Source: Microgenomates group bacterium (lineage in GTDB: Bacteria > Patescibacteriota > Microgenomatia > PFEM01 > JBNASD01). From it: 64,000 nucleotides of DNA. Below, piece after piece: positions 3,587 through 61,965 of this stretch (position 1 is the stretch's first letter; each line of letters opens with the position of its first letter). Under the pieces are notes generated by a model that saw nothing but the letters and a program-made list of their open reading frames with translations, was not told the origin of the DNA and searched no databases. A program made the translations under genes and the position numbers. The stretch lies in the NCBI GenBank assembly GCA_049720225.1, contig JBNASD010000001.1:15162-79161 (forward strand). The letters run 5' to 3'.

Positions 3587-4822
3587 ATGAAGGATAAAAT
3601 TTTTACTTTAATTACTCAAGAAGAAAACCTTCAAGAGGAAACAATTAATTTAATTCCTTCGGAAAATTATTGTTCAGTCGCGGTTAAAAAGACTTTAGGG
3701 TCGGTTTTAACCGATAAATATGCAGAAGGTTATCCGAAAAGGCGTTATTATCAGGGTAACAAGATTGTGGATGAAGTAGAAAATTTGGCAATTCAACGAG
3801 CTAAATCTCTTTTTGGTGTTCCTTATGTGAATGTTCAACCTTATTCTGGGTCTACCGCAAATATGGCGGTATATTTTACTTTGGCAAATCCTGGAGAAAA
3901 AGTGATGGGAATGGATTTAAAAGCGGGAGGACACCTAACCCACGGAGCGCCGGTGAATTTTTCCGGAAAATTTTATAAAGTAGTTAGTTACGGAGTAAAT
4001 AGTGATGGTTGGTTAGATTATGAGGAAATTGAAAATTTAGCTAAAAGACATCGTCCGAAAATTATTTGGTGCGGAGCGACTGCTTATCCTCGATTTTTTG
4101 ATTGGCAAAAATTTGCCAAAATTGCCGAAAAGGTGGGGGCGTGGTTGGTGGCGGATATCGCTCATTATGCGGGATTAATTGTTGGTGGGGTTTATCCTTC
4201 GCCTGTTTCTTTTGCTGATATTTTAACAACAACTACCCATAAAACTTTACGCGGGCCGCGGGGAGCAATGATCATGGTTACCAAAAAAGGCCTTAAAAAA
4301 GATAAAAATTTGGGAGAAAAAATAAACCGTTGGGTTTTTCCTGGTCTTCAGGGTGGTCCTCACGAAAACAATATTGCCGGTATTGCGGTGGCGTTAGCAG
4401 AAGCAAAGAAACCTTCTTTTAAAAAATATGCCCAACAGGTAATAAAAAACGCTCAGGTATTAGCGGAAGAATTAATAAAATTCGGATTTAAATTAGTTAC
4501 GGGAGGAACGGATAATCATTTACTTTTGATTGATTTGCGAAACAAAAAAATTAGCGGAAAAGAGACGGCGGTAATTTTAGAAAAAGTAGGAATTATTGTT
4601 AACGCCAATTCTATTCCCAATGATCCAGGCCCACCTTTAAAGCCATCAGGAATTCGCTTAGGAACGCCAGCGGTGACCACCAGAGGAATGAAAGAAAAAG
4701 AGATGAAGCTGATTGCTAATTTCATTTATCGGGCGATAGAGTTTAAAGAAGATGAAAAAGAACTTCAAAAAATTAAAAATGAAGTTAAACGGTTAACTTC
4801 TCAATTTAGATTAAGATTTTAA
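3587..4822 (+). CDS. glyA: serine hydroxymethyltransferase
   Basis: 411 aa. Shows the PLP-lysine region TTTTHKTLRGPRG and the SHMT N-terminus INLIPSEN. Confidence 0.9.
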   Translation: MKDKIFTLITQEENLQEETINLIPSENYCSVAVKKTLGSVLTDKYAEGYPKRRYYQGNKIVDEVENLAIQRAKSLFGVPYVNVQPYSGSTANMAVYFTLANPGEKVMGMDLKAGGHLTHGAPVNFSGKFYKVVSYGVNSDGWLDYEEIENLAKRHRPKIIWCGATAYPRFFDWQKFAKIAEKVGAWLVADIAHYAGLIVGGVYPSPVSFADILTTTTHKTLRGPRGAMIMVTKKGLKKDKNLGEKINRWVFPGLQGGPHENNIAGIAVALAEAKKPSFKKYAQQVIKNAQVLAEELIKFGFKLVTGGTDNHLLLIDLRNKKISGKETAVILEKVGIIVNANSIPNDPGPPLKPSGIRLGTPAVTTRGMKEKEMKLIANFIYRAIEFKEDEKELQKIKNEVKRLTSQFRLRF

Positions 4823-8718: not shown

Positions 8719-9051
8719 ATGAAAAGTAAAAATTTGGAATTACAAAAAATTATTAAAGCTACCCAATTATTAAAAGGTAAACAAGTTATTATTTTTGGTT
8801 CTCAAGCTAAGGAAAAAGGAAAAAAGGGAAGCGATCTTGATCTTTGTATATTGATAAAAAAAGGAGAAGATCCTTTGAAATTTCAGCGCCAATTTCGTCT
8901 TAAATTATGGGAATTAGGCTATCAATGGATTTGGCCTTTAGATATTCATGTTTATCCTGAAGATTTTTTTAACGATAGACTTTCTCTTCAAGACCCGTTT
9001 ATAAAAGAGATTAAAAAAGGAGTAAAAATATATGACCAAAGTAATATTTAA
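8719..9051 (+). CDS. minimal nucleotidyltransferase (MNT/MntA-like antitoxin)
   Basis: 110 aa. NTase motif GSQAKEKGKKGSDLDLCILI (GS...DxD). Confidence 0.7.
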   Translation: MKSKNLELQKIIKATQLLKGKQVIIFGSQAKEKGKKGSDLDLCILIKKGEDPLKFQRQFRLKLWELGYQWIWPLDIHVYPEDFFNDRLSLQDPFIKEIKKGVKIYDQSNI

Positions 9052-9433
9052 AAAATTAGCAGAAGAATGGATTAAGGCAGCAGAACATGATTTAGATTGG
9101 GCAGAGGGAAGCTTAAAATTAAAAAAATTTGCCGGTGTTTGTTTTTTATCTCAGCAAGTAGTTGAAAAGTCGCTTAAGGCTTTTTTGTACTCTCATGGTG
9201 AAAATTTAAAAAAAATACACGACTTAGATAAACTTTTAATTTTAGCAATTAAGTATGCTCCTGAATTAGAAAGATTTAAAATAGCAACCGCTACTCTTTC
9301 TAGTTATTATTTACAAACCCGCTATCCCGATATTGGTAATATTGAGATTTTTAATAAAAAAAAATTAGCTGAAGAAGCTTTTGGTTGGGCAAAAGAAATT
9401 TTTAATATTATTAAAAATAAAATTAAAAAATAA
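9032..9433 (+). CDS. HEPN domain protein (HepT-like toxin partner)
   Basis: 133 aa. HEPN (PF05168-type) C-terminal ...LSSYYLQTRYPD. It overlaps the MNT gene by 20 nt, and its TAA is immediately followed by the proS ATG. Confidence 0.7.
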   Translation: MTKVIFKKLAEEWIKAAEHDLDWAEGSLKLKKFAGVCFLSQQVVEKSLKAFLYSHGENLKKIHDLDKLLILAIKYAPELERFKIATATLSSYYLQTRYPDIGNIEIFNKKKLAEEAFGWAKEIFNIIKNKIKK

Positions 9434-11128
9434 ATGCGCGTCTCTTGGCTTTTTGGAAAAACGACTAAAAGTGTTCCGGCGGATGCCAAAATTCCTTCCC
9501 ATAAATTTTTATGGCAGGGAGGATTTATTCGTCGTTTTTCCACCGGTAGGTGGGGAATTTTACCTTTAGGAATGAGGGTATGGGAAAAGGTTTACCGAAT
9601 TATTGATGAGGAAATGAAGGCGATTGGGTGCCAAAAAATTGTTGTTCCTACCTTACACCCAATTGAGATTTGGCGGGCAACCAATCGTGATCAAGCTTTT
9701 GGGGAAGAGATGTTAGTAATCAAAGATCATCATGGGGCTACTTTTGCTTTAGGAGCGACCGCCGAAGGGATGATGGTTGAATTGGTAAAAATGTTTGCTC
9801 CTTCTTATAAAGACTTACCGATTTTAGTTTATCAATTTTCCCAAAAGTTTCGTGATGATAAGCGTCCTCGGGGAGGAATAATGCGGGTAAGAGAATTTAT
9901 GATGAAAGATGCTTATAGCTTTGCTCGGTCTGAGAAAGAGGCTTTGGAGATTTATTGGCGATTTTATGAAGCTTATTTACGAATTGCTAAAAAATTGGAT
10001 TTACCAGTAATTCCGGTAGAAGCGGATTCAGGAGCAATTGGTGGGAGTTTATCTCATGAGTTTCAAATTGAATCAAAATATGGAGATCAAACCTTTTTTG
10101 TTTGTGATTCTTGTGGTTATGCGGCCAATGCAGAAAAAGCGGAGTTTAAGCGAGTACCGATAAATCCCGAAGAAGAAGAAAAACCATTTAAAATCATTCC
10201 CCAACCAGAATGGGTGTATACAATGGAGGATAATGTCAAACATTATGGTGAGCCTTTATGGCGATACTTAAAAAATGTTGTTTATAAGGATGAAAAAGGA
10301 AGGATTATAATTGCTTCTTTAAGGGGAGACCAGAATGTTAGCGAAACAAAATTAAAAAGAGCCGTGGGGGCTAGCCAATTAACCCCGGCTACCGAAGAAG
10401 ATTTAGCAAAAATTGGCACTAAGCACGGTTATGTTCACTCGTGGGGACATAAGGGAGTAACTTATATTGGCGATTTAGGTTTACCGATGGTTAAAAATTA
10501 TATCGGTGGACAAAAAGAAGAAACAACCGATTCAATTAATGTGAATTATGGGCGGGATTTTAAATATGAAGTTTTGGCGGATATTGTCGAGGCAAAAGAT
10601 GGCGATCCTTGTGCTCGTTGTCAAAATGGAAAATTACAACAAAAAACTGGTTTTGAGTGGGGTCATTGTTTTAAGTTAGATCATGTTTATTCTAAACCCC
10701 AAGAGGGATATTTTACCGATAAAAACGGGAATCCAAAACTTTTTTGGATGGGTTCATATGGAATAGGAATGGAAAGAACCATTGCCTGTCTTGTAGAAAC
10801 TCACCATGATTCGCGGGGAATTATTTGGCCTTCAACAGTCGCTCCTTATCAAGTTTATCTTATTTATCTTAAAAGCGAGCAAAAAAAAGTTAAACAAAAA
10901 GCAGAGGAGGTTTATGAGCAATTAATTAAAGAAGGAGTAGAAGTTTTATATGATGATCGGGAAGACGTTTCTGCTGGAGAAAAATTTGCCGATGCGGATT
11001 TAATTGGTTGTCCAGTAAGATTGGTTGTTTCGGAAAAAACTAAAGATAAAATTGAATGGAAAGGAAGAAAAGAAAAACACCCCTTACTTTTAAGTGAAAA
11101 AGAATTAATTAAAAAACTTAAATCTTAA
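9434..11128 (+). CDS. proS: prolyl-tRNA synthetase (bacterial type, reduced editing insertion)
   Basis: 564 aa. Class II motifs and an N-terminus MRVSWLFGKT...PADAKIPSHKFLWQGGFIRR like bacterial ProRS. Confidence 0.9.
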   Translation: MRVSWLFGKTTKSVPADAKIPSHKFLWQGGFIRRFSTGRWGILPLGMRVWEKVYRIIDEEMKAIGCQKIVVPTLHPIEIWRATNRDQAFGEEMLVIKDHHGATFALGATAEGMMVELVKMFAPSYKDLPILVYQFSQKFRDDKRPRGGIMRVREFMMKDAYSFARSEKEALEIYWRFYEAYLRIAKKLDLPVIPVEADSGAIGGSLSHEFQIESKYGDQTFFVCDSCGYAANAEKAEFKRVPINPEEEEKPFKIIPQPEWVYTMEDNVKHYGEPLWRYLKNVVYKDEKGRIIIASLRGDQNVSETKLKRAVGASQLTPATEEDLAKIGTKHGYVHSWGHKGVTYIGDLGLPMVKNYIGGQKEETTDSINVNYGRDFKYEVLADIVEAKDGDPCARCQNGKLQQKTGFEWGHCFKLDHVYSKPQEGYFTDKNGNPKLFWMGSYGIGMERTIACLVETHHDSRGIIWPSTVAPYQVYLIYLKSEQKKVKQKAEEVYEQLIKEGVEVLYDDREDVSAGEKFADADLIGCPVRLVVSEKTKDKIEWKGRKEKHPLLLSEKELIKKLKS

Positions 11129-11151
11129 TTTTTTTCTTTGACACTTTTTGC

Positions 11152-11172
11152 CACCTGTCCAAAATTGTCAAT
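11152..11172. repeat. 21-bp direct repeat copy 1 (CACCTGTCCAAAATTGTCAAT)
   Basis: Matches 11672..11692 at 18/21 positions. The two copies bracket the pseudogene, and a TAATTAA is adjacent to each copy. Confidence 0.6.
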
Positions 11173-11621
11173 TAATTAATATCGAAAAATTCTTTAAATG
11201 GTTTATCATTTTCTATTTTGGAGACGACAAAAATTCTGACATACTTATCTATTCCTAACAAACTTCTTAAAAATTCAATTTCCTTTTCGCAAGGATATGC
11301 GTGAAGAAAAAGACTTTGGTGGAGAGGAAAAAATCCTAATTTTCGAAGATAAAACTGAAAAATTTTTCTCTGAAAATTAAACTTTTTTTGGAATATCGTA
11401 ACTTATTAAATACCATTTGCCGTTCCAAAATGAAGGTTTGGTAATTTTTAATTCATCTAAAGCAAATTTGAGAATTTTTTCTTTACCTTTTTGGGTAATT
11501 TTTACAATTTGATATTTGCCCTCATTTTTAATTTCTATTAACTTTTGGTTTTCTAATCTTAATAAAGTTCTTTTAAGATAGGGGATATTGAATCTTTTGA
11601 AAGCAGATTTTTCTTCTTCAT
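11172..11621 (-). pseudogene. frameshifted gene for a winged-HTH + Cas2-like (ferredoxin-fold) putative regulator
   Basis: Minus-strand frame A gives ...SAFKRFNIPYLKRTLLRLENQKLIEIKNEGKYQIVKITQKGKEKILKFALDELKITKPSFWNGKWYLISYDIPKKV*. Frame A+1 continues ...QRKIFQFYLRKLGFFPLHQSLFLHAYPCEKEIEFLRSLLGIDKYVRIFVVSKIENDKPFKEFFDIN*. The frames switch at a 7-nt homopolymer (11383..11389). The only ATG (11621..11619) is in yet another frame. The YDIP...R...L...G...Q.S.F pattern resembles Cas2/VapD-fold domains. Confidence 0.45.
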
Positions 11622-11671
11622 TAAAAATTTTTTTTAAACCCCTTTGGAAGGTTAGGAGCGACTAATTAAGA

Positions 11672-11692
11672 CACCTGTCTAATTTTGTCAAT
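11672..11692. repeat. 21-bp direct repeat copy 2 (CACCTGTCTAATTTTGTCAAT)
   Basis: See copy 1. It lies just upstream (on the minus strand) of the pseudogene start, so it could be an operator. Confidence 0.6.
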
Positions 11693-11772
11693 GAAGGTTA
11701 AGGGGAAATTAGTTTTATTTTATTTTTGAAATTAATTGACTTTTTATGGTTTTTTAAGATATCCTTTTTTAA

Positions 11773-12747
11773 ATGAAAAAAGATAAACCCAAGGTAGTAG
11801 TAATTGGTGGGGGAACAGGAACTTATACCGTTTTAACAGGCTTGCGCGATTACCCAATTGATTTAACCGCAATTGTTTCAATGTTCGATTCCGGTGGTTC
11901 CTCAGGTAGACTAAGAGATGAGTTTGGGGTTTTACCACCGGGCGATGTTCGCCAGGCATTATTGGCTTTGTCCTCTTTGCCATTAGAAAAAATAAGTTTA
12001 CGCCAACTTTTTGAATATCGCTTCGAAAACGGAATTGGTTTAAAAGGACACTCTTTTGGTAATCTTTTATTAACCGCTTTAACTGATATTACTGGCCGAA
12101 TTGATTTAGCCATTGCCGAGGCGGAAAGAATTTTGGATGTAAAAGGAAAAGTATTGCCTGTTTCTTTAATTGACTCTAATTTATGTGCTCGTTTGGAAGA
12201 TGGAACGATTATTAAAGGAGAAAGCAATATCGATATCCGCCGAGTAAGGCCAGAACTAAAAATTCTTGATGTTTTTTTGGATCCGCCGGCGCGGATTTTT
12301 TCCTTAGCCAGAAAAGCCATTCTTCAGGCGGATTTAATTGTTTTGGGTCCGGGTGATCTTTATACTTCTTTAATTCCTAATTTATTAGTAGAGGGAGTTT
12401 CCCAAGCAATTTTTCGTTCTAAAGGGGAGGTAATTTATGTTTGTAATTTAATGACTAAACATGGGGAAACAGATGGATTTGCGGTTTCTGATTTTATTAA
12501 GGAGGTAAAAAGATATTTAGGAAAAGGAGGGAAAAAATTAAAAAAAGTATTAGTAAATAGTTGGTGGAAAATTCCCCCCAAAATTTTGCGGCGATACCAC
12601 CAAGAAAAGTCTTATCCAGTAAAATATGACCAAGAAAATTGTCAGAGGTTGGGATTAGAAATTATTAGTCTTCCTTTAGCGAGCGCCGGTAATCTTTTTC
12701 GTCATGATCCCCAAAAATTAGCTCGGGCAATTATTGATTTGTTATAA
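11773..12747 (+). CDS. YvcK/CofD-like (UPF0052, gluconeogenesis factor family)
   Basis: 324 aa. N-terminus KVVVIGGGTGTYTVLTGLRDY...FDSGGSSGRLR is typical of the YvcK/CofD family. Confidence 0.75.
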   Translation: MKKDKPKVVVIGGGTGTYTVLTGLRDYPIDLTAIVSMFDSGGSSGRLRDEFGVLPPGDVRQALLALSSLPLEKISLRQLFEYRFENGIGLKGHSFGNLLLTALTDITGRIDLAIAEAERILDVKGKVLPVSLIDSNLCARLEDGTIIKGESNIDIRRVRPELKILDVFLDPPARIFSLARKAILQADLIVLGPGDLYTSLIPNLLVEGVSQAIFRSKGEVIYVCNLMTKHGETDGFAVSDFIKEVKRYLGKGGKKLKKVLVNSWWKIPPKILRRYHQEKSYPVKYDQENCQRLGLEIISLPLASAGNLFRHDPQKLARAIIDLL

Positions 12748-12752
12748 TCTTT

Positions 12753-13607
12753 TTGATGAAAAAAATTATCACCCATATTAATCCTGATTTAGATGCGGTT
12801 ACCGGTGTTTGGTTAATTAAAAAATTTTTGCCCGAATGGGAAGATGCCGGGATTGATTTTATTTCAGCGACACCTACTGGGGAAAAAATGCCGGATGTCG
12901 ATAAAGATCCTCAAGTTTTGTACATTGATGTGGGGCGAGGAAAATTAGATCATCACCAAACAAAAAAATATCTTTCTGCGACTAAACTTTGTTGGCAATA
13001 TATTTTAAAAAAAAGAAAAAGTCAGCCATTATCTTCTTTAGATTTAAAAGCGGGAGAAAAATTAGTAGAAATCGTTACCCAAGTCGATAATGCTTATGAT
13101 ATTCATTGGCAAGAAAGTCAAGAATTTCGCTATTGTTTTTATTTCCACAACATTATTGATGGTTTAAGAGGATTAAGTTGGAGTGATAGGGAGGTAGTTG
13201 ACTTTTCCTTTTGTGCGCTGGAGGCAATTTTTCTTCAAATTAAAAATAAAATTAAAGCTCAAGAAGAAATTGAAAAAGGAGAAGAATTTGAAACTTGTTG
13301 GGGAAAAGCGTTGGCGGTAGAATCTTCTAATAAACAAGTGATTTGGGAAGGGGAAGTAAAAGGATACGTTTTAGTAGTAAAAAAAGATCCAGAAAGCGGA
13401 AAGGTACAAATTTATGCCCGTCCTGATTCGAAAGTAGACCTTACCCAGATTTATCAAAAAATTAAAAAAATCGATCCTGATTCTGATTGGTTTTTACATT
13501 CTAGTAAAAGATTACTTCTTAATCATTCTTCGGTCAATCCCAATATGCGGCCAACAAAATTAACTTCGGAGCAAATTATTAGGTTGTTAAAAAAACAAAA
13601 AATTTAA
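12753..13607 (+). CDS. DHH-family phosphoesterase-like protein
   Basis: 284 aa. HINPDLDAVTG and a DHH motif (GKLDHHQTK). Confidence 0.5.
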   Translation: MMKKIITHINPDLDAVTGVWLIKKFLPEWEDAGIDFISATPTGEKMPDVDKDPQVLYIDVGRGKLDHHQTKKYLSATKLCWQYILKKRKSQPLSSLDLKAGEKLVEIVTQVDNAYDIHWQESQEFRYCFYFHNIIDGLRGLSWSDREVVDFSFCALEAIFLQIKNKIKAQEEIEKGEEFETCWGKALAVESSNKQVIWEGEVKGYVLVVKKDPESGKVQIYARPDSKVDLTQIYQKIKKIDPDSDWFLHSSKRLLLNHSSVNPNMRPTKLTSEQIIRLLKKQKI

Positions 13608-14297: not shown

Positions 14298-14358
14298 AAG
14301 TGGAAAATTGTAAATTGAAAATTTTTACTTGATATATTTTATTACTATTAAGTTATAA

Positions 14359-14706
14359 TTGACAGAATCAATGTTTTCCATTAATTTAATATTTGTAGAT
14401 CAAAAAACAATTTGGGATTTAAACAAAAAATATCGTCAGGTAGATAAGCCGACAACAGTTTTGAGTTTTTATTATGGTTTTGAGGAGTTTCCTAAAAAAG
14501 GGGCAGGCAAAAATAAAAATAATCAAGAGGTAGTTATCGGGGAAGTTTTTATTTGTCCTCAAGAGGCAAAAAAACAAAAATTAGCGATTAAAGATTTAGT
14601 TATCCATGGAATCAACAACCTTTTATCTCAAATACAGACCGAAAAAAATATCCGAATTAGATTTAACCGAAGTTCGGGAAACTCTTCAAAAGATTGCCAA
14701 AAGTAA
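14359..14706 (+). CDS. YbeY-like N-terminal fragment lacking the HxxxHxxxxxH zinc triad; overlaps dnaX by 100 nt
   Basis: DKPTTVLSFYYG matches the YbeY core (DxPTDVLSF). Where HGxLHLxGYDH is expected, the frame reads IHGINNLLSQIQ and runs into the dnaX start. Confidence 0.35.
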   Translation: MTESMFSINLIFVDQKTIWDLNKKYRQVDKPTTVLSFYYGFEEFPKKGAGKNKNNQEVVIGEVFICPQEAKKQKLAIKDLVIHGINNLLSQIQTEKNIRIRFNRSSGNSSKDCQK

Positions 14707-17073: not shown

Positions 17074-17552
17074 TGAAAGCGCAAAGCGCAAAGCTCAAAG
17101 CTCAAAACTTAAAAAAATTTATTCCGCCACCACCGCCACCATTTGAAACTTTACAACAACCAAAAAACCCAATTGAGGAGCCCTTTTTCCCTTCTTCAGC
17201 AGTTTCCTCACCCGAGGCAGATAGTCAAGCGCAAAAATTAGCCGAAATGAAAAAAGCAGATGAGGAGAAAAGTCGGCAGTTAGCCAAAAAAATTATTGAA
17301 GAATTAGAGCAAGAAATTGCCAAATGGCGAAAAATTAGGGAAGAGCAACTAAAAGCGCGTCGCCAGCCACCAGAGCAACAAGGCAGTCAAGAAAAAATGG
17401 AGGGAGAAGAAAAACAAAATCAATTACCCCCTCTTCAAGAACCAACGACTAAACCTAAACGAGGATTATTTTTTGGTTTTTGGGGTCGGCGAATCAAATC
17501 CGCCCAACAACAATCCCAACCAGAAAAGGTAGGAAGGAGGGTGGGAGGATAA
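17073..17552 (+). CDS. hypothetical Pro/Gln-rich low-complexity protein
   Basis: 159 aa. Its ATG overlaps the recR TAA (TAATG). It starts with a 7-mer x4 repeat (AAAGCGC/AAAGCTC) encoding KAQSAKLKAQ, then a PPPPPP run and a coiled-coil-like middle. Confidence 0.4.
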   Translation: MKAQSAKLKAQNLKKFIPPPPPPFETLQQPKNPIEEPFFPSSAVSSPEADSQAQKLAEMKKADEEKSRQLAKKIIEELEQEIAKWRKIREEQLKARRQPPEQQGSQEKMEGEEKQNQLPPLQEPTTKPKRGLFFGFWGRRIKSAQQQSQPEKVGRRVGG

Positions 17553-29233: not shown

Positions 29234-30542
29234 AATTCCTCCGCATTCTGACGAGGCAGAAGCGTCGGTTTTAGGGGCAATTTTGATTGATAAAGATGCG
29301 ATTGTCGCAGTAGCGGAGTTTCTAAGACCCGAGCATTTTTATAATCAACAAAACGGCTTAATTTATGAAGCCATTCTTCATCTTTACGAAGAGAGAAAAC
29401 CAATTGATTTGGTGACTTTAAAAGATGAGCTTAAAAAAAGAAAAATCCTTTCTAAAGTTGGCGGTTCTTCTTATTTAGCAGAGTTAGTTAATCAAGTTCC
29501 CACTGCTGCCCATGTTGAAGAATATGGATTAATAATTAAGGATAATTACACTAAAAGAGAGTTAATTTCTGCGGCTGCCCGAATTACCGAAGAGGCTTTT
29601 GATGAAGGAAAAGAAGCCCGTAAGGTTTTAGATGATGCTGAGCAGGCAATTTTTGCTTTATCACAAAAACATTTAAAAGAAGGATTTTTGCCGGTTAAAG
29701 AGATTCTAGCAGAAAGTTTTGATCGTTTAGATGAACTTCATAAAACCGCGGGGGGATTAAGGGGGGTTCCTACCGGATTTAAGGATTTAGATGATACTTT
29801 GGCAGGAATGCAGGATTCTAACCTTTTAATTTTGGCTGCCCGTCCGGGTTTGGGAAAAACTGCTTTTGCCCTAGAAATTGCTCGTCATGTAGCGGTAAAA
29901 GAAAAATTACCCGTTGGTTTTTTCTCTTTAGAAATGAGTAAAGAAGAGTTAGTAGACAGACTTTTGGTTTCTCAGGCGGATATTGATGCTTGGAAGTTAA
30001 AAACTGGTCGTTTAAGCGAGGATGATTTTACGCGATTGTCGGAAGCGATGGGAATTTTGGCGGAGGCGCCACTATTTATTGACGATACTCCCGCTTTAAC
30101 TATTTTAGAGATGAGAACTAAGGCTCGTCGGTTAATGGCGGAACATGGGTTGAGGTTATTAATTGTTGATTATTTACAATTAATGAAAAGTGTAAGACAA
30201 TTGGAAAATCGCGTTCAGGAAGTTTCGGAAATTTCGATGGGATTAAAAAATTTAGCTCGGGAGTTAAAAATTCCTGTTTTGGCAATTTCTCAACTTTCTC
30301 GAGAGGTGGAAAAAAGAGGAAAAAAACGACCTCAACTGGCAGATTTAAGAGAGTCCGGATCAATTGAACAAGATGCGGATGTAGTGATGTTTTTATGGCG
30401 GGAAGACGATGATGATTTAGAAAACGTAGAATTAGAGGTTGCCAAACACCGTAATGGACCATTAAGAAGGATAAAACTTCGCTTCCGCGGTGATCGGATT
30501 AAATTTTATGGAGTAGAGACAAAAAGGAGTGAGGAAGAATAG
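29220..30542 (+). CDS. dnaB: replicative DNA helicase DnaB
   Basis: DnaB N-terminal domain (EASVLGAIL); Walker A ARPGLGKT; RecA fold. TAG stop at 30540..30542. Confidence 0.9.
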   Translation: MPEVKIPPHSDEAEASVLGAILIDKDAIVAVAEFLRPEHFYNQQNGLIYEAILHLYEERKPIDLVTLKDELKKRKILSKVGGSSYLAELVNQVPTAAHVEEYGLIIKDNYTKRELISAAARITEEAFDEGKEARKVLDDAEQAIFALSQKHLKEGFLPVKEILAESFDRLDELHKTAGGLRGVPTGFKDLDDTLAGMQDSNLLILAARPGLGKTAFALEIARHVAVKEKLPVGFFSLEMSKEELVDRLLVSQADIDAWKLKTGRLSEDDFTRLSEAMGILAEAPLFIDDTPALTILEMRTKARRLMAEHGLRLLIVDYLQLMKSVRQLENRVQEVSEISMGLKNLARELKIPVLAISQLSREVEKRGKKRPQLADLRESGSIEQDADVVMFLWREDDDDLENVELEVAKHRNGPLRRIKLRFRGDRIKFYGVETKRSEEE

Positions 30543-30628
30543 TGCCGCGGGAGGGAGTCGAACCCTCACGGCCTTTAAAGACCACGGGTTTTTGAGACCC
30601 GCCTGTCTGCCAATTCCAGCACCGCGGC
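30543..30628 (-). tRNA. tRNA-Leu (anticodon CAA), type II with long variable arm; CCA not encoded
   Basis: Manually folded. Acceptor GCCGCGG/CCGCGGC, D-loop with GG, anticodon stem CGGGT/ACCCG with loop CTCAAAA, a variable-arm hairpin, T-arm GAGGG-TTCGACT-CCCTC, discriminator A. Confidence 0.8.
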
Positions 30629-35494: not shown

Positions 35495-36355
35495 TTTTTA
35501 AAGAAGGGTTAAGGTGGGGAAGAGGGGAGGGGTTTCCAATAATATCCTATAATTATTTAATAACCCTATAGTATTATATTTTCACAAAAAATTTTCTTTA
35601 TTTTCACAAAATAGCACTAAAAATTTTTATTTGCCAATAATATAGTTTGATATACTTGACTTTGTGGATAACTTTAGAGGGGAGTTAACTTAAAAATAAA
35701 ATTTAATTTTTTAACAAATTATTCTCTTCCTTTAAATTGAAATAAGAATTAATAAAGATAATAATTTCCCTTTCCCTTTTCTTAGATAGCTCTCTTTAGC
35801 AATGACGCACAATATATCTTTTGCGACATTTTTAAGCAGAGTGAGGAAGAGGGGTTTAAATTTTTAAGTTTTAAAAATTATAAAAATAAAAATTTGAGTT
35901 TTATTTTTAACTAAAACCTTTTAAAAGTTTCCTTAATTCTCTTTAATAAACTATTAAGGTTTTTTCATTTTTTAGATTTCTTATAACTTCTCCCGGCTAA
36001 ATTAAAAAAATTAAAAACGAAAAATGGAGCTGTTGTCTTAAAACAGATGGTTCTTTTAAAATACCAAAATATATCCTTTTTTTAAAAAAGCCGTTTTTGG
36101 GGCTTTAGCGGGTTGGTTGAATTTGCAATAAAAACAAAAAAATATCGCTTCGGAGAAAAAGTTTCTTTTTTAATCAAGATTTTCTCTTTTTCCTTCAATC
36201 TAGATCAAAATAATTCCTGCTTAAGAGAAGTGCTTTATATTAATAGTTTTAAATAAAAATAAGCCCTAAAAAAATAAATAATCCCTAAAAAATAATCAAT
36301 CGCATATAAGAGATATAAAACAAAAATTTTTTAAAATTTATGATGTCGCACAATA

Positions 36356-36384
36356 TTGACAAGCAAATTTTAGGGGTTTATAAT
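36356..36384 (+). promoter_or_regulatory. perfect sigma70-consensus promoter TTGACA-N17-TATAAT for the recombinase gene
   Basis: TTGACA 36356..36361, a 17-nt spacer, TATAAT 36379..36384, then 7 nt to the ATG at 36392. There is no Shine-Dalgarno, so the mRNA is probably leaderless. Confidence 0.5.
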
Positions 36385-36391
36385 TAAATTT

Positions 36392-37348
36392 ATGTCTCAA
36401 CTTAAAGAAAAAACAAAATGGGAAAAATTAATCGACAATTTTTTAGAGGATTTACAAATTTCTCGTCACTACTCTCCCCTAACAATTCGCAATTATTATC
36501 ATTATCTTTCGCGGTTTTCTTTATGGATTAAAAAAAATTTTCCTAAAGTTGAACCAGAGACACTTACTTTAGAAATATTGAAAAAATACCGATTGTTTTT
36601 AGCCAGATTTATCGCACCAAATGGCTCTCCCCTTTCTAGTAGCACTCAAGCTTATCATGTGATAGCTTTACGGTCATTTTTAAAGTGGTTAATTAAGAAC
36701 GATGTTAAGACCTTATCTCCAGAAAAAATTGATGTTCCTAAGATGGGGGGAAGAAGTTTAAAATTTTTGACTACCGAGCAGGTGGAAAGATTACTCTCCC
36801 AACCAAATATTTCTAATTTTCGGGGATTAAGAGATAAGGCAATTTTAGAGGTTCTTTTCTCAACGGGATTACGAGTTTCTGAATTAGTAAAGCTAAATCG
36901 CGACCAAATAGATTTAAAAAGAAGAGAATTTGGGGTAATTGGAAAAGGAGGGAAAGCGCGGGTTGTTTTTCTTTCTCCGCGGGCAGTGAAATGGCTTAAA
37001 AAATATCTAGAGAGTCGATCAGATTCGTGGTCTCCTCTTTTTATTCGGACTTCAGGAAAAGGAATTGCTAAATTTTCCACCGCTGAAGGAGAAAAAATGA
37101 GACTTTCTGTTCGTTCAGTCCAGCGAATTGTGGAAAAATATGTTAAAAAAGCGCGGCTACCAATAAAAATTACCCCTCATGGTTTACGACATAGTTTTGC
37201 TACTGATCTTTTAATGGCGGGAGCAGATCTTCGAAGCGTTCAGGAACTTTTGGGACACAAAAATATTGTCACGACTCAAATTTATACTCATGTGACCAAT
37301 CGGCAGTTAAAGCAAATTTATGATACTTTTCATGGAAAGGGAAAATAA
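36392..37348 (+). CDS. tyrosine site-specific recombinase, XerC/XerD-like
   Basis: 318 aa. N-terminal core-binding domain; catalytic R (GLRVSEL), HGLRHSFAT, LLGH, and the Tyr in TQIYTHV. Confidence 0.85.
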   Translation: MSQLKEKTKWEKLIDNFLEDLQISRHYSPLTIRNYYHYLSRFSLWIKKNFPKVEPETLTLEILKKYRLFLARFIAPNGSPLSSSTQAYHVIALRSFLKWLIKNDVKTLSPEKIDVPKMGGRSLKFLTTEQVERLLSQPNISNFRGLRDKAILEVLFSTGLRVSELVKLNRDQIDLKRREFGVIGKGGKARVVFLSPRAVKWLKKYLESRSDSWSPLFIRTSGKGIAKFSTAEGEKMRLSVRSVQRIVEKYVKKARLPIKITPHGLRHSFATDLLMAGADLRSVQELLGHKNIVTTQIYTHVTNRQLKQIYDTFHGKGK

Positions 37349-61584: not shown

Positions 61585-61636
61585 ATTTATCTTTAACTTG
61601 ACAAAAAAGATATAATAAAATTTAAAGAAGATCAAA

Positions 61637-61963
61637 ATGACTCGTTCTCTTGAAAGAAGAATTCCTTAGCCGGAAGGGGTAAAAGTTACTGAAGGTGGGT
61701 GGCAAAGAGGTCCTTCTTTTGAAAATTTTTTAAAAAGACAGGGAATAGAAATCGATTCCTCTCTTTCTCCCTTAGAGAAAAGATTATTAGAAAGATTTTA
61801 TTGTTATCGTCAAAGAGTGGCTGCTGGAGTTATAGAACCAGATAAAGCGGCAAGACGTTTTGAAAGGTTGGTAAATAAAGCAATAAAAAATCCTGAAGAA
61901 GTAGAAGAATTTTATAAAAAAAATGAATCCTTGATTACTCTTATTAGAGATAACGTTAGATAA
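61637..61963 (+). pseudogene. 108-codon ORF interrupted by an in-frame TAG at codon 11 (61667..61669); hypothetical
   Basis: ATG at 61637: MTRSLERRIP-TAG-PEGVKVTEGGWQRGPSFENFLKRQGIEIDSSLSPLEKRLLERFYCYRQRVAAGVIEPDKAARRFERLVNKAIKNPEEVEEFYKKNESLITLIRDNVR*. There is no in-frame ATG after the TAG for 45 codons, though the coding-like composition continues. Confidence 0.35.
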
Positions 61964-61965
61964 AA

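Follow-up and report, generated by a model that had tools for sequence, protein, structure and literature searches.

Between proS and a CofD/YvcK-like gene of a Microgenomates group bacterium lies a stretch of 644 bp (positions 11129-11772) that has no open reading frame (ORF) of at least 60 amino acids; a preliminary description of this DNA had noted that no ORF was called there. We examined this gap within a 64,000-nucleotide stretch of contig JBNASD010000001.1 (hereafter, the window; positions refer to it). The best overall explanation, which we put at roughly 85%, is that the gap holds a genuine pseudogene of a small PaaX-like factor together with relics of its operators. As far as can be judged from the DNA, the locus is an ordinary, fairly recent pseudogene and the ortholog of a gene that is intact in relatives, and we expect no functional product from it. 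An intact ortholog is found in the same gene order elsewhere, and in the window the start codon is lost and the frame is disrupted.

The window is 94% coding, and this gap is the second largest of its five gaps of more than 250 bp. The GC (guanine plus cytosine) content of the gap region is 25.5%, versus 33.9% for the whole window. On the minus strand, the gap encodes a winged-helix segment and then, past the T7 run at 11383-11389, continues in a new frame (...FNFQRKIFQFYLRKLGFFPLHQSLFLHAYP...VRIFVV...). If one base is removed from each of the two homopolymer runs that are listed as frameshifts in Table 1, then a continuous frame of 163 residues results. This repaired remnant matches the Pfam family PaaX_M (PF20803, "PaaX protein central Cas2-like domain") with E = 4.6e-13 and 49.5 bits (cut-off 24), and its intact homologs match the same family with 53-56 bits. 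The preliminary description was thus right to propose a decayed winged-helix and Cas2-like gene related to PaaX.

The homology to intact proteins falls into three pieces (Table 1). Piece A was matched in tblastn frame -1 by the homologs P0001, P0002, P0004, P0008, P0024, and P0118, and the alignment agrees. Piece B spans the recognition helix and wing of the winged helix, the linker helix, and the first strand of PaaX_M. Piece C contains most of the PaaX_M (Cas2-like) domain. Two frameshifts had been proposed. Both are present, and one is in the run where it had been placed; the second is in the T8 run rather than near 11615. At frameshift 2, L004 is the only relative that also has an uninterrupted A-run, and L001 and L005 have no such run. 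The ATG that had been noted in another frame does exist, at about 11616. It was considered as the start of the gene, but it lies inside the coding region and in the wrong frame. We rejected it because the homologs align further upstream in another frame and are about 70 residues longer at the N-terminus.

The main lesion, which the preliminary description missed, is by our alignment a deletion of about 190 bp. It joins the first ~26 bases of a palindromic element, described below, directly to codon 61 (TTA GTC GCT CCT...), and the homology in the window begins at residue 61 (LVAPNLP). The sequence that spans the junction is TCTTAATTAGTCGC (also written TGTCTTAATTAGTCGC). Lost were positions ~27-34 of the element, the start region along with the last part of the -10, the ATG, and codons 1-60 with the K-rich N-terminus. 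Helix 44-58 would have been lost as well; by its place in the topology of the model, in a part of low confidence, it would be the winged-helix domain's first helix. There is a possible GTC microhomology at the break. Global alignments of the DNA in this AT-rich region upstream were noisy; to size the deletion, we used only the alignment to L004, which was anchored on the upstream element. The interval from CofD to proS is 644 bp in the window versus 806 bp in L001. No in-frame start codon precedes the remnant, and tblastn found no match to residues 1-60 of the homologs, and no second copy of the gene, anywhere in the window. Two conserved residues are also replaced by leucine: W168, which is invariant (120/120 homologs), and Y194, which is present in 112/120 homologs and is leucine in none of the 120.

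Table 1. Features of the gap and its flanking genes, in order of position. Residue numbers are those of intact homologs.
Feature	Positions	Strand	Details
proS	9434-11128	+	ORF adjoining the gap
Downstream element, complete	11138-11171	-	TTGACAATTTTGGACAGGTGGCAAAAAGTGTCAA on the gene strand; directly after the stop codon; holds the 21-mer at 11152-11172
Stop codon TAA	11174-11172	-	Within TTAATTAA at 11172-11179
Piece C	11387-11175	-	KKFNFQRKIF...FFDIN (end VRIFVVSKIENDKPFKEFFDIN); residues 152-221 of P0001; tblastn 73% identity
Frameshift 2	11383-11389	-	+1; A7 on the gene strand, A6 in L004
Piece B	11643-11386	-	RGLKKIFNEEEKSAFKRFNIPYLKRTL...WYLISYDIPK; residues 68-161; tblastn 68% identity, E = 1.5e-38
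Frameshift 1	11628-11635	-	+1; A8T5 on the gene strand, 12 bases in relatives (A7T5 or A6T6)
Piece A	11665-11624	-	LVAPNLPKGFKKNF (also read as LVAPNLPKGFKK); residues 61-74; most upstream homology
Deletion junction	11663-11669	-	...GACAGGTGTCTTAA joined to TTAGTCGCTCC...; ~190-bp loss relative to L004 positions 1426-1615
Upstream promoter/operator relic	11691-11658	-	TTGACAAAATTAGACAGGTGTCTTAATTAGTCGC; holds the 21-mer at 11672-11692
CofD/YvcK-like gene	11773-12747	+	ORF adjoining the gap, other side

We collected 112 loci with related genes and, after removing duplicates, used 73 of them for counts of elements. In the closest metagenomic relatives (L001-L006, L033-L035, and L097; 67-74% amino acid identity), the gene is intact, lies beside an orthologous proS, and encodes a protein of 221-223 amino acids with a winged helix and a PaaX_M/Cas2-like domain. 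The order CofD, gene, proS, with the gene divergent from CofD and convergent with proS, is found in L001-L004, L033, L035, and L097. In L005, L006, and L034, proS is beside the gene and CofD was not found (L035 has the full order). The relatives' ProS proteins are 71-80% identical to the window's, and their CofD proteins are 75-84% identical. Genes neighbouring the window's locus and the related loci include CofD, proS, S21, YqeY, YbeY, and DnaX. Because this gene order is common to the relatives, the locus in the window is their ortholog.

To describe the family, we used two larger searches. Among 5.8 billion proteins, we found 410 homologs; the best 120 of these 410 all have 204-250 amino acids and all contain PF20803, and their named sources are Microgenomates, Daviesbacteria, Gottesmanbacteria, and the Patescibacteria group. 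Among 1.84 billion representative proteins, there were 1062 clusters (at 50% identity) with E ≤ 1e-10. In the intact protein, PaaX_M comes after a winged helix, and the chain ends about 10 residues beyond PaaX_M. A Pfam scan at E ≤ 0.1 found no PaaX_C in the intact homologs. In an AlphaFold model of an intact homolog, PaaX_M has a β-α-β-β-α-β layout with a predicted local distance difference test (pLDDT) score of about 90. The winged-helix part (helix 44-58, a strand, a helix, helix 86-98, and a hairpin at 102-115) has a pLDDT of 45-74. Structures similar to the model include that of E. coli PaaX (8a39) and several of Cas2, and the domain has the ferredoxin-like fold of Cas2. We considered whether the hydrophobic helix near the N-terminus could be a membrane anchor and set this idea aside: the order of elements fits the canonical winged-helix topology with this helix as H1, although this part of the model has low confidence.

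By sequence, the repaired remnant falls far short of the thresholds for Cas2 and for the PaaX equivalog. The Cas2 family of Pfam (PF09827) gives 12.0-20.2 bits for the remnant and the intact homologs, which is below its gathering threshold of 23.8. The PaaX equivalog TIGR02277 gives 23.9 bits against a cut-off of 264.55, and the match is partial (profile positions 37-151 of 279). The defence models of PADLOC gave only sub-threshold noise from CARF, winged-helix, and Cas2 models (Cas2 E = 0.03). No VapD family turned up among the Pfam or PADLOC matches, and no separate test for VapD was made. No CRISPR array was found in the 64-kb window, in agreement with the preliminary description, and none of the genes called next to the locus in L001-L006 is a cas gene. 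Our verdict is that these proteins are an undescribed, large family of mini-PaaX proteins, probably autorepressors, of the candidate phyla radiation (CPR). In the literature we searched, no paper names both PaaX and Cas2; further PaaX papers were judged on their titles and abstracts.

The gene is flanked by two 21-mers that had been reported as direct repeats. Their coordinates (11152-11172 and 11672-11692) and their likeness (18/21 identical) stand, and a search for further copies found only these two in 64 kb at up to 3 mismatches (0.00 expected in shuffles). The true unit, though, is a 34-bp palindrome, TTGACA-N8-C-N4-G-N8-TGTCAA: each 21-mer is positions 1-20 of such an element plus one flanking base, and the deletion has cut the upstream copy short. 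Homologous elements flank the gene in the relatives. In the window, the downstream element retains both arms (TTGACA/TGTCAA), C15, and G20, and its inner symmetry has partly decayed. The upstream relic has kept its -35 (TTGACA, 11691-11686) and its core. Its -10 reads TAATTA, having lost its final T, and its right arm has been replaced by coding sequence through the deletion. Because the deletion fused the upstream element, just after its core, to codon 61, the 21-bp repeats are the left arm and core of two relic operators. The sequence TAATTAA does adjoin both 21-mers, as had been noted, but the two occurrences are unrelated: one contains the stop codon, and the other is the degenerate -10 at the deletion junction.

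Comparison with the relatives supports the first of two options in the preliminary description, that the repeats are operators of an autoregulated repressor. Of the 61 loci whose sequence reaches far enough, 57 have an element immediately upstream of the gene. One immediately downstream is present in 47/68 loci, and 35/57 have an element at each end. TTGACA (1-6), C15, G20, and GTC (30-32) are invariant. The upstream copies usually have TAnnnT at positions 24-29, which is 17 nt after TTGACA (51/64), versus 15/50 of the downstream copies. In 33 of 64 upstream cases, the first in-frame ATG is 1-4 nt after the element. Because this ATG directly follows an element that carries a -35, a 17-nt spacer, and a -10, the upstream copy probably has a sigma-70-type promoter layout that gives a leaderless mRNA. 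As for E. coli PaaX, the inverted repeat overlaps the -35 and -10 of the regulator's own promoter. A promoter scan performed at chance (3 sites found versus 3.2 expected), and we kept it out of the evidence. No paper in the literature we searched combines Patescibacteria, leaderless, and promoter.

The centre of the element varies between loci. The 14-nt core is identical at 11.6/14 positions on average within a locus versus 6.2/14 between loci (permutation p < 1e-4, n = 42). Symmetric positions covary: at 14 and 21, C:G (46) or G:C (44), and at 16 and 19, A:T (37), G:C (34), T:A (16), or C:G (10). Four paralogs in one metagenome-assembled genome have four different cores. JBMORX01, the genome of L014, carries four copies. 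In L014, extra elements with the locus's own core, or with the core of another paralog, adjoin other genes. This suggests small regulons, each specific to a paralog, and a recurrent arrangement in which a gene is enclosed by two operators.

Two of these loci have further peculiarities. In L014 (3739-4210 of JBMORX010000003.1), an ORF of 96 amino acids (3858-4148) that is coiled-coil-like and unrelated to the regulator lies between two elements, at 3739 and 4177. At 8972 there is a fifth element, whose core is of the type seen at L008, another paralog in this genome. In L009 (5884-5917 and 6651-6684), the asymmetric upstream core, AGTCCTTTAGGTTT, when reverse-complemented, gives exactly the downstream core, AAACCTAAAGGACT, so these two sites are mutually inverted; asymmetric cores are in direct orientation in most loci.

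We then asked which residues vary with the operator's centre, using column-by-column mutual information with the protein alignment (61 loci). The signal is highest within the Cas2-like domain rather than the winged helix. For the central tetranucleotide, the leading columns are 152 (z = 13.3), 175 (z = 10.2), 155, 150, and 160, and for base 14 they are residues 159 and 155. For Fisher tests, the unit of counting was the lineage, defined by clustering at 65% identity over the columns that were not being tested. Cores with CACGTG always occur with K/R152 (8/8 lineages, p = 1.4e-5), and CG(A/T)(A/T)CG cores (CGATCG or CGTACG) always occur with E152 and K175 (5/5 lineages, p = 1.8e-4). CCAAAG/CTTTGG cores are associated with G/N152 (p = 4e-4). 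At base 14, C is associated with K159, and G is associated with D/E/N159 (p = 2.5e-3).

The clearest single event is a charge swap in the window's own clade. The sister orthologs L001 and L004 have CACGTG with K152 and E/Q175, versus CGATCG with E152 and K175 in L005 and L035, and the proteins are 85-91% identical elsewhere. The remnant in the window has K152, N155, K159, and Q175, which are the residues of L004, and the core of L004 (GGACACGTGTCC) differs little from the two relic cores of the window (AGACAGGTGTCT and GGACAGGTGGCA). Hardly any variation is seen in the recognition helix of the winged helix (PYLKRTLxRL) or in the TTGACA arms.

Judging from the fold, residues 152, 155, and 159 should share a face of helix 1 in the Cas2-like domain, and residue 175 should lie in the hairpin between strands 2 and 3, which in a ferredoxin-like fold would adjoin the loop between strand 1 and helix 1. 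We tentatively suggest, at somewhat less than even odds, that the Cas2-fold domain itself reads DNA and that the family consists of paralog-specific repressors with a simple recognition code. The winged helices would hold the TTGACA arms, and a dimer of Cas2-like domains (via 152, 155, 159, and 175) would read the central C-NNNN-G hexamer and its flanks at the dyad.

At some loci, the downstream core belongs to a different class from the upstream core: CCAAAG upstream and CTCGAG downstream in L013, L015, L026, and L044; CGTACG and CGATCG in L029; and CGATCG and TGATCA in L088 and L094. Such mismatched downstream operators could wire paralogs into cross-regulation.

Instead of binding a protein, the palindromes might form hairpins in RNA, as a terminator or a stability element that is common to convergent genes. 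The downstream copies of the relatives do fold well (-11.8 to -21.6 kcal/mol, z of -3.4 to -7.1) and are located where two genes converge, 0-60 nt past the stop codon; the window's downstream element folds at -6.9 kcal/mol (z = -1.5). However, the promoter copy would lie upstream of the inferred start of transcription and therefore would not be in the RNA. No U-tract follows the palindromes, and a scan found 0 terminator-like sites in 11000-11900. Mismatches in the transcribed copies show no preference for G:U (at positions 11-15, GT 15, AC 9, other 43), and positions 7-10 and 25-28 are often A:A mismatches. Also, the cores track the identities of amino acids in the protein. We consider this explanation improbable. 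Rfam, run on the whole window at gathering thresholds, gave zero matches.

The preliminary description had also suggested that the repeats could be the ends of a tiny mobile unit. A cassette resembling a miniature inverted-repeat transposable element, or a site-specific recombination module, would account for the near-identical 34-bp palindromes that bracket the gene in 35/57 loci, for the multiple copies of the family in varied contexts in some genomes, and for the unrelated 96-amino-acid ORF of L014 that is bracketed in the same way. But the upstream copy is a consensus promoter in a fixed register with the ATG, and the -10 is maintained only there. Gene order is stable across the clade, at 67-74% amino acid identity. 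The cores diverge between orthologous loci, yet they stay matched within a locus and covary with residues of the protein. Finally, there is no adjacent transposase or recombinase and no target-site duplication, and no relatives were found in IMG/VR viral contigs. We regard a mobile cassette as quite unlikely.

Given that the hairpin and mobility evidence is unfavourable and that E. coli PaaX provides the closest known mechanism, we interpret the elements as an autorepressor's operators, with one located inside the promoter. Microgenomates-type lineages of the CPR carry a PaaX-like gene of ~220 amino acids between a divergent CofD/YvcK-like gene and a convergent proS. In the relatives, the left arm of the upstream element is a consensus -35, TAnnnT at positions 24-29 is the -10, and the right arm ends 1-4 nt before the ATG. 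A second copy, without the -10, usually lies just after the stop codon. In the proposed scheme, the protein would bind the palindromes as a dimer and repress its own promoter by occluding RNA polymerase. Binding and autorepression are inferred from these patterns and by analogy to E. coli PaaX, which autorepresses Px by steric hindrance of RNA polymerase (PMC9493321). In the window, the ~190-bp deletion fused the upstream element to codon 61, and two +1 slippage insertions then spread the remnant across three frames.

Some observations weigh against parts of this account. No near-identical locus was found in public genomes or metagenomes, and the best relative is 73-74% identical. The window deviates at 6 of 68 conserved columns, as compared to 5-7 for the four closest intact relatives, and the only replacements unique to it are those of W168 and Y194. 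As it deviates no more than the intact relatives do, relaxed selection is either recent or weakly evidenced. Taken alone, the homopolymer shifts could be errors, although the deletion could not. The model does not account for what the downstream copy does; it may serve in looping, in cross-regulation, or as a roadblock towards the convergent gene. Distances between whole protein domains correlate weakly with distances between operator cores (Spearman 0.10-0.12; 0.05-0.12 over the protein regions compared in a Mantel-type test), and the core-protein signal appeared only column by column.

The shifts raise the question of whether the gene is intact in the organism, with the frameshifts and the short 5' end being errors of sequencing or assembly. 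Both shifts are +1 in A7/A8 homopolymers, which is a classic site for errors, and the remnant is still 67-74% identical to intact orthologs, with just two conserved residues uniquely replaced. On the other hand, homopolymer error does not produce a 190-bp deletion in which codon 61 is joined to an operator core, and the intact ORFs of the same window contain 155 other A/T runs of at least 7 nt. For these two reasons, assembly error seems unlikely. The replacement of both W168 and Y194 and a -10 without its invariant final T also argue against an intact gene, and overall we think that it is very unlikely. As for expression through programmed frameshifting or transcriptional slippage, both shifts are in slippery A-runs, but this idea can practically be dismissed: no in-frame start precedes piece A or piece B, the first 60 conserved residues are lost, intact relatives need no shift here, and two successive shifts in the same direction would be required.

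The genes around the pseudogene showed other features. The sequence at 11736-11775 contains a promoter-like site (TTGACT-18-TATCCT) that ends 7 nt before the ATG of the CofD/YvcK-like gene. No Shine-Dalgarno-like GGAGG was seen by eye at this gene's start (no scan was aimed at it), and the CofD/YvcK-like gene too may be translated from a leaderless mRNA. Just upstream of proS, at 8719-9433, are overlapping small ORFs of 110 and 133 amino acids. They correspond to a nucleotidyltransferase (Polbeta/NTP_transf_2) and HEPN pair in the same place in L001; this pair is of a minimal toxin-antitoxin type, and it is present in L001 and not in L004 or L005. On the other side, L001 (2210-2895) and L002 have a MazE-like/PIN pair between CofD and a conserved gene of 280 amino acids. 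This pair is lacking from the window (12748-13607) and from L005; in the window, CofD is followed directly by an ORF of 284 amino acids (12753-13607).

Elsewhere in the window, the largest gap (35495-36391, 897 nt without an ORF of at least 60 amino acids) is directly upstream of a gene for a XerC/XerD-like tyrosine recombinase (36392-37348), and Rfam found nothing in it at gathering thresholds. Three more ORF-free gaps of 300-400 nt are at 14298-14605, 17074-17479, and 61585-61965. ARAGORN identified a tRNA-Leu (CAA) at 30542-30628; Rfam at gathering thresholds did not report even this tRNA.

For this genome, the result is minor: one regulator was lost, and 11175-11665 (minus strand) should be marked as a pseudogene instead of leaving an unexplained 644-bp gap. 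A dead copy is ordinary. The wider value is in what the relatives suggest about how an uncharacterised family of regulators reads DNA. The comparison gives the anatomy of the family: a consensus sigma-70-type promoter with an embedded palindromic operator, probably a leaderless mRNA, and frequently a second operator. The Cas2 fold would gain a new role if specificity does reside in the Cas2-like domain, as the covariation between residues and bases indicates. To our knowledge, almost no transcription regulators or operators have been defined in CPR bacteria, so the family, if we are correct, offers a handle on how they regulate transcription.

As a pseudogene, the remnant resembles others that arise by deletion and homopolymer slippage in small AT-rich genomes: it has the same kind of 5' deletion, +1 insertions in A-runs, and AT-richness, and nothing about it is unusual by comparison. 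The family differs from Cas2 (PF09827) in that its sequence matches are below threshold, its domain is fused to a winged helix, and neither cas1 nor a CRISPR array is present in the window or in the related loci that we examined. Uncharacterised PaaX-like regulators with solved structures include proteins from Jannaschia (3L09) and M. tuberculosis (Rv0674, 3KFW), with chains of 234-253 amino acids; we assume, by analogy with PaaX (PMC9493321), that both retain a helical C-terminal domain.

The closest comparison is to PaaX itself (E. coli W, PDB 8A39; TIGR02277), a repressor of the paa genes that responds to phenylacetyl-CoA and has ~305-316 amino acids, versus ~220 for mini-PaaX. Mini-PaaX occurs in the CPR and away from paa genes; it lacks PaaX_C, does not match the Pfam model for the N-terminus of PaaX, and has an extra K-rich N-terminus. 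Because it lacks the PaaX_C domain, which in PaaX binds the inducer (PMC9493321), and is not near paa genes, mini-PaaX is not an ortholog of PaaX. The operators differ as well. E. coli PaaX binds two inverted hexamers that are 27 bp apart (TGATTC-N27-GAATCA), and as of a 2022 review, no structure of a PaaX-operator complex had been determined (PMC9493321). In contrast, the mini-PaaX operator appears to have a conserved centre that bears specificity, and data from mini-PaaX may help to explain how PaaX uses its central domain.

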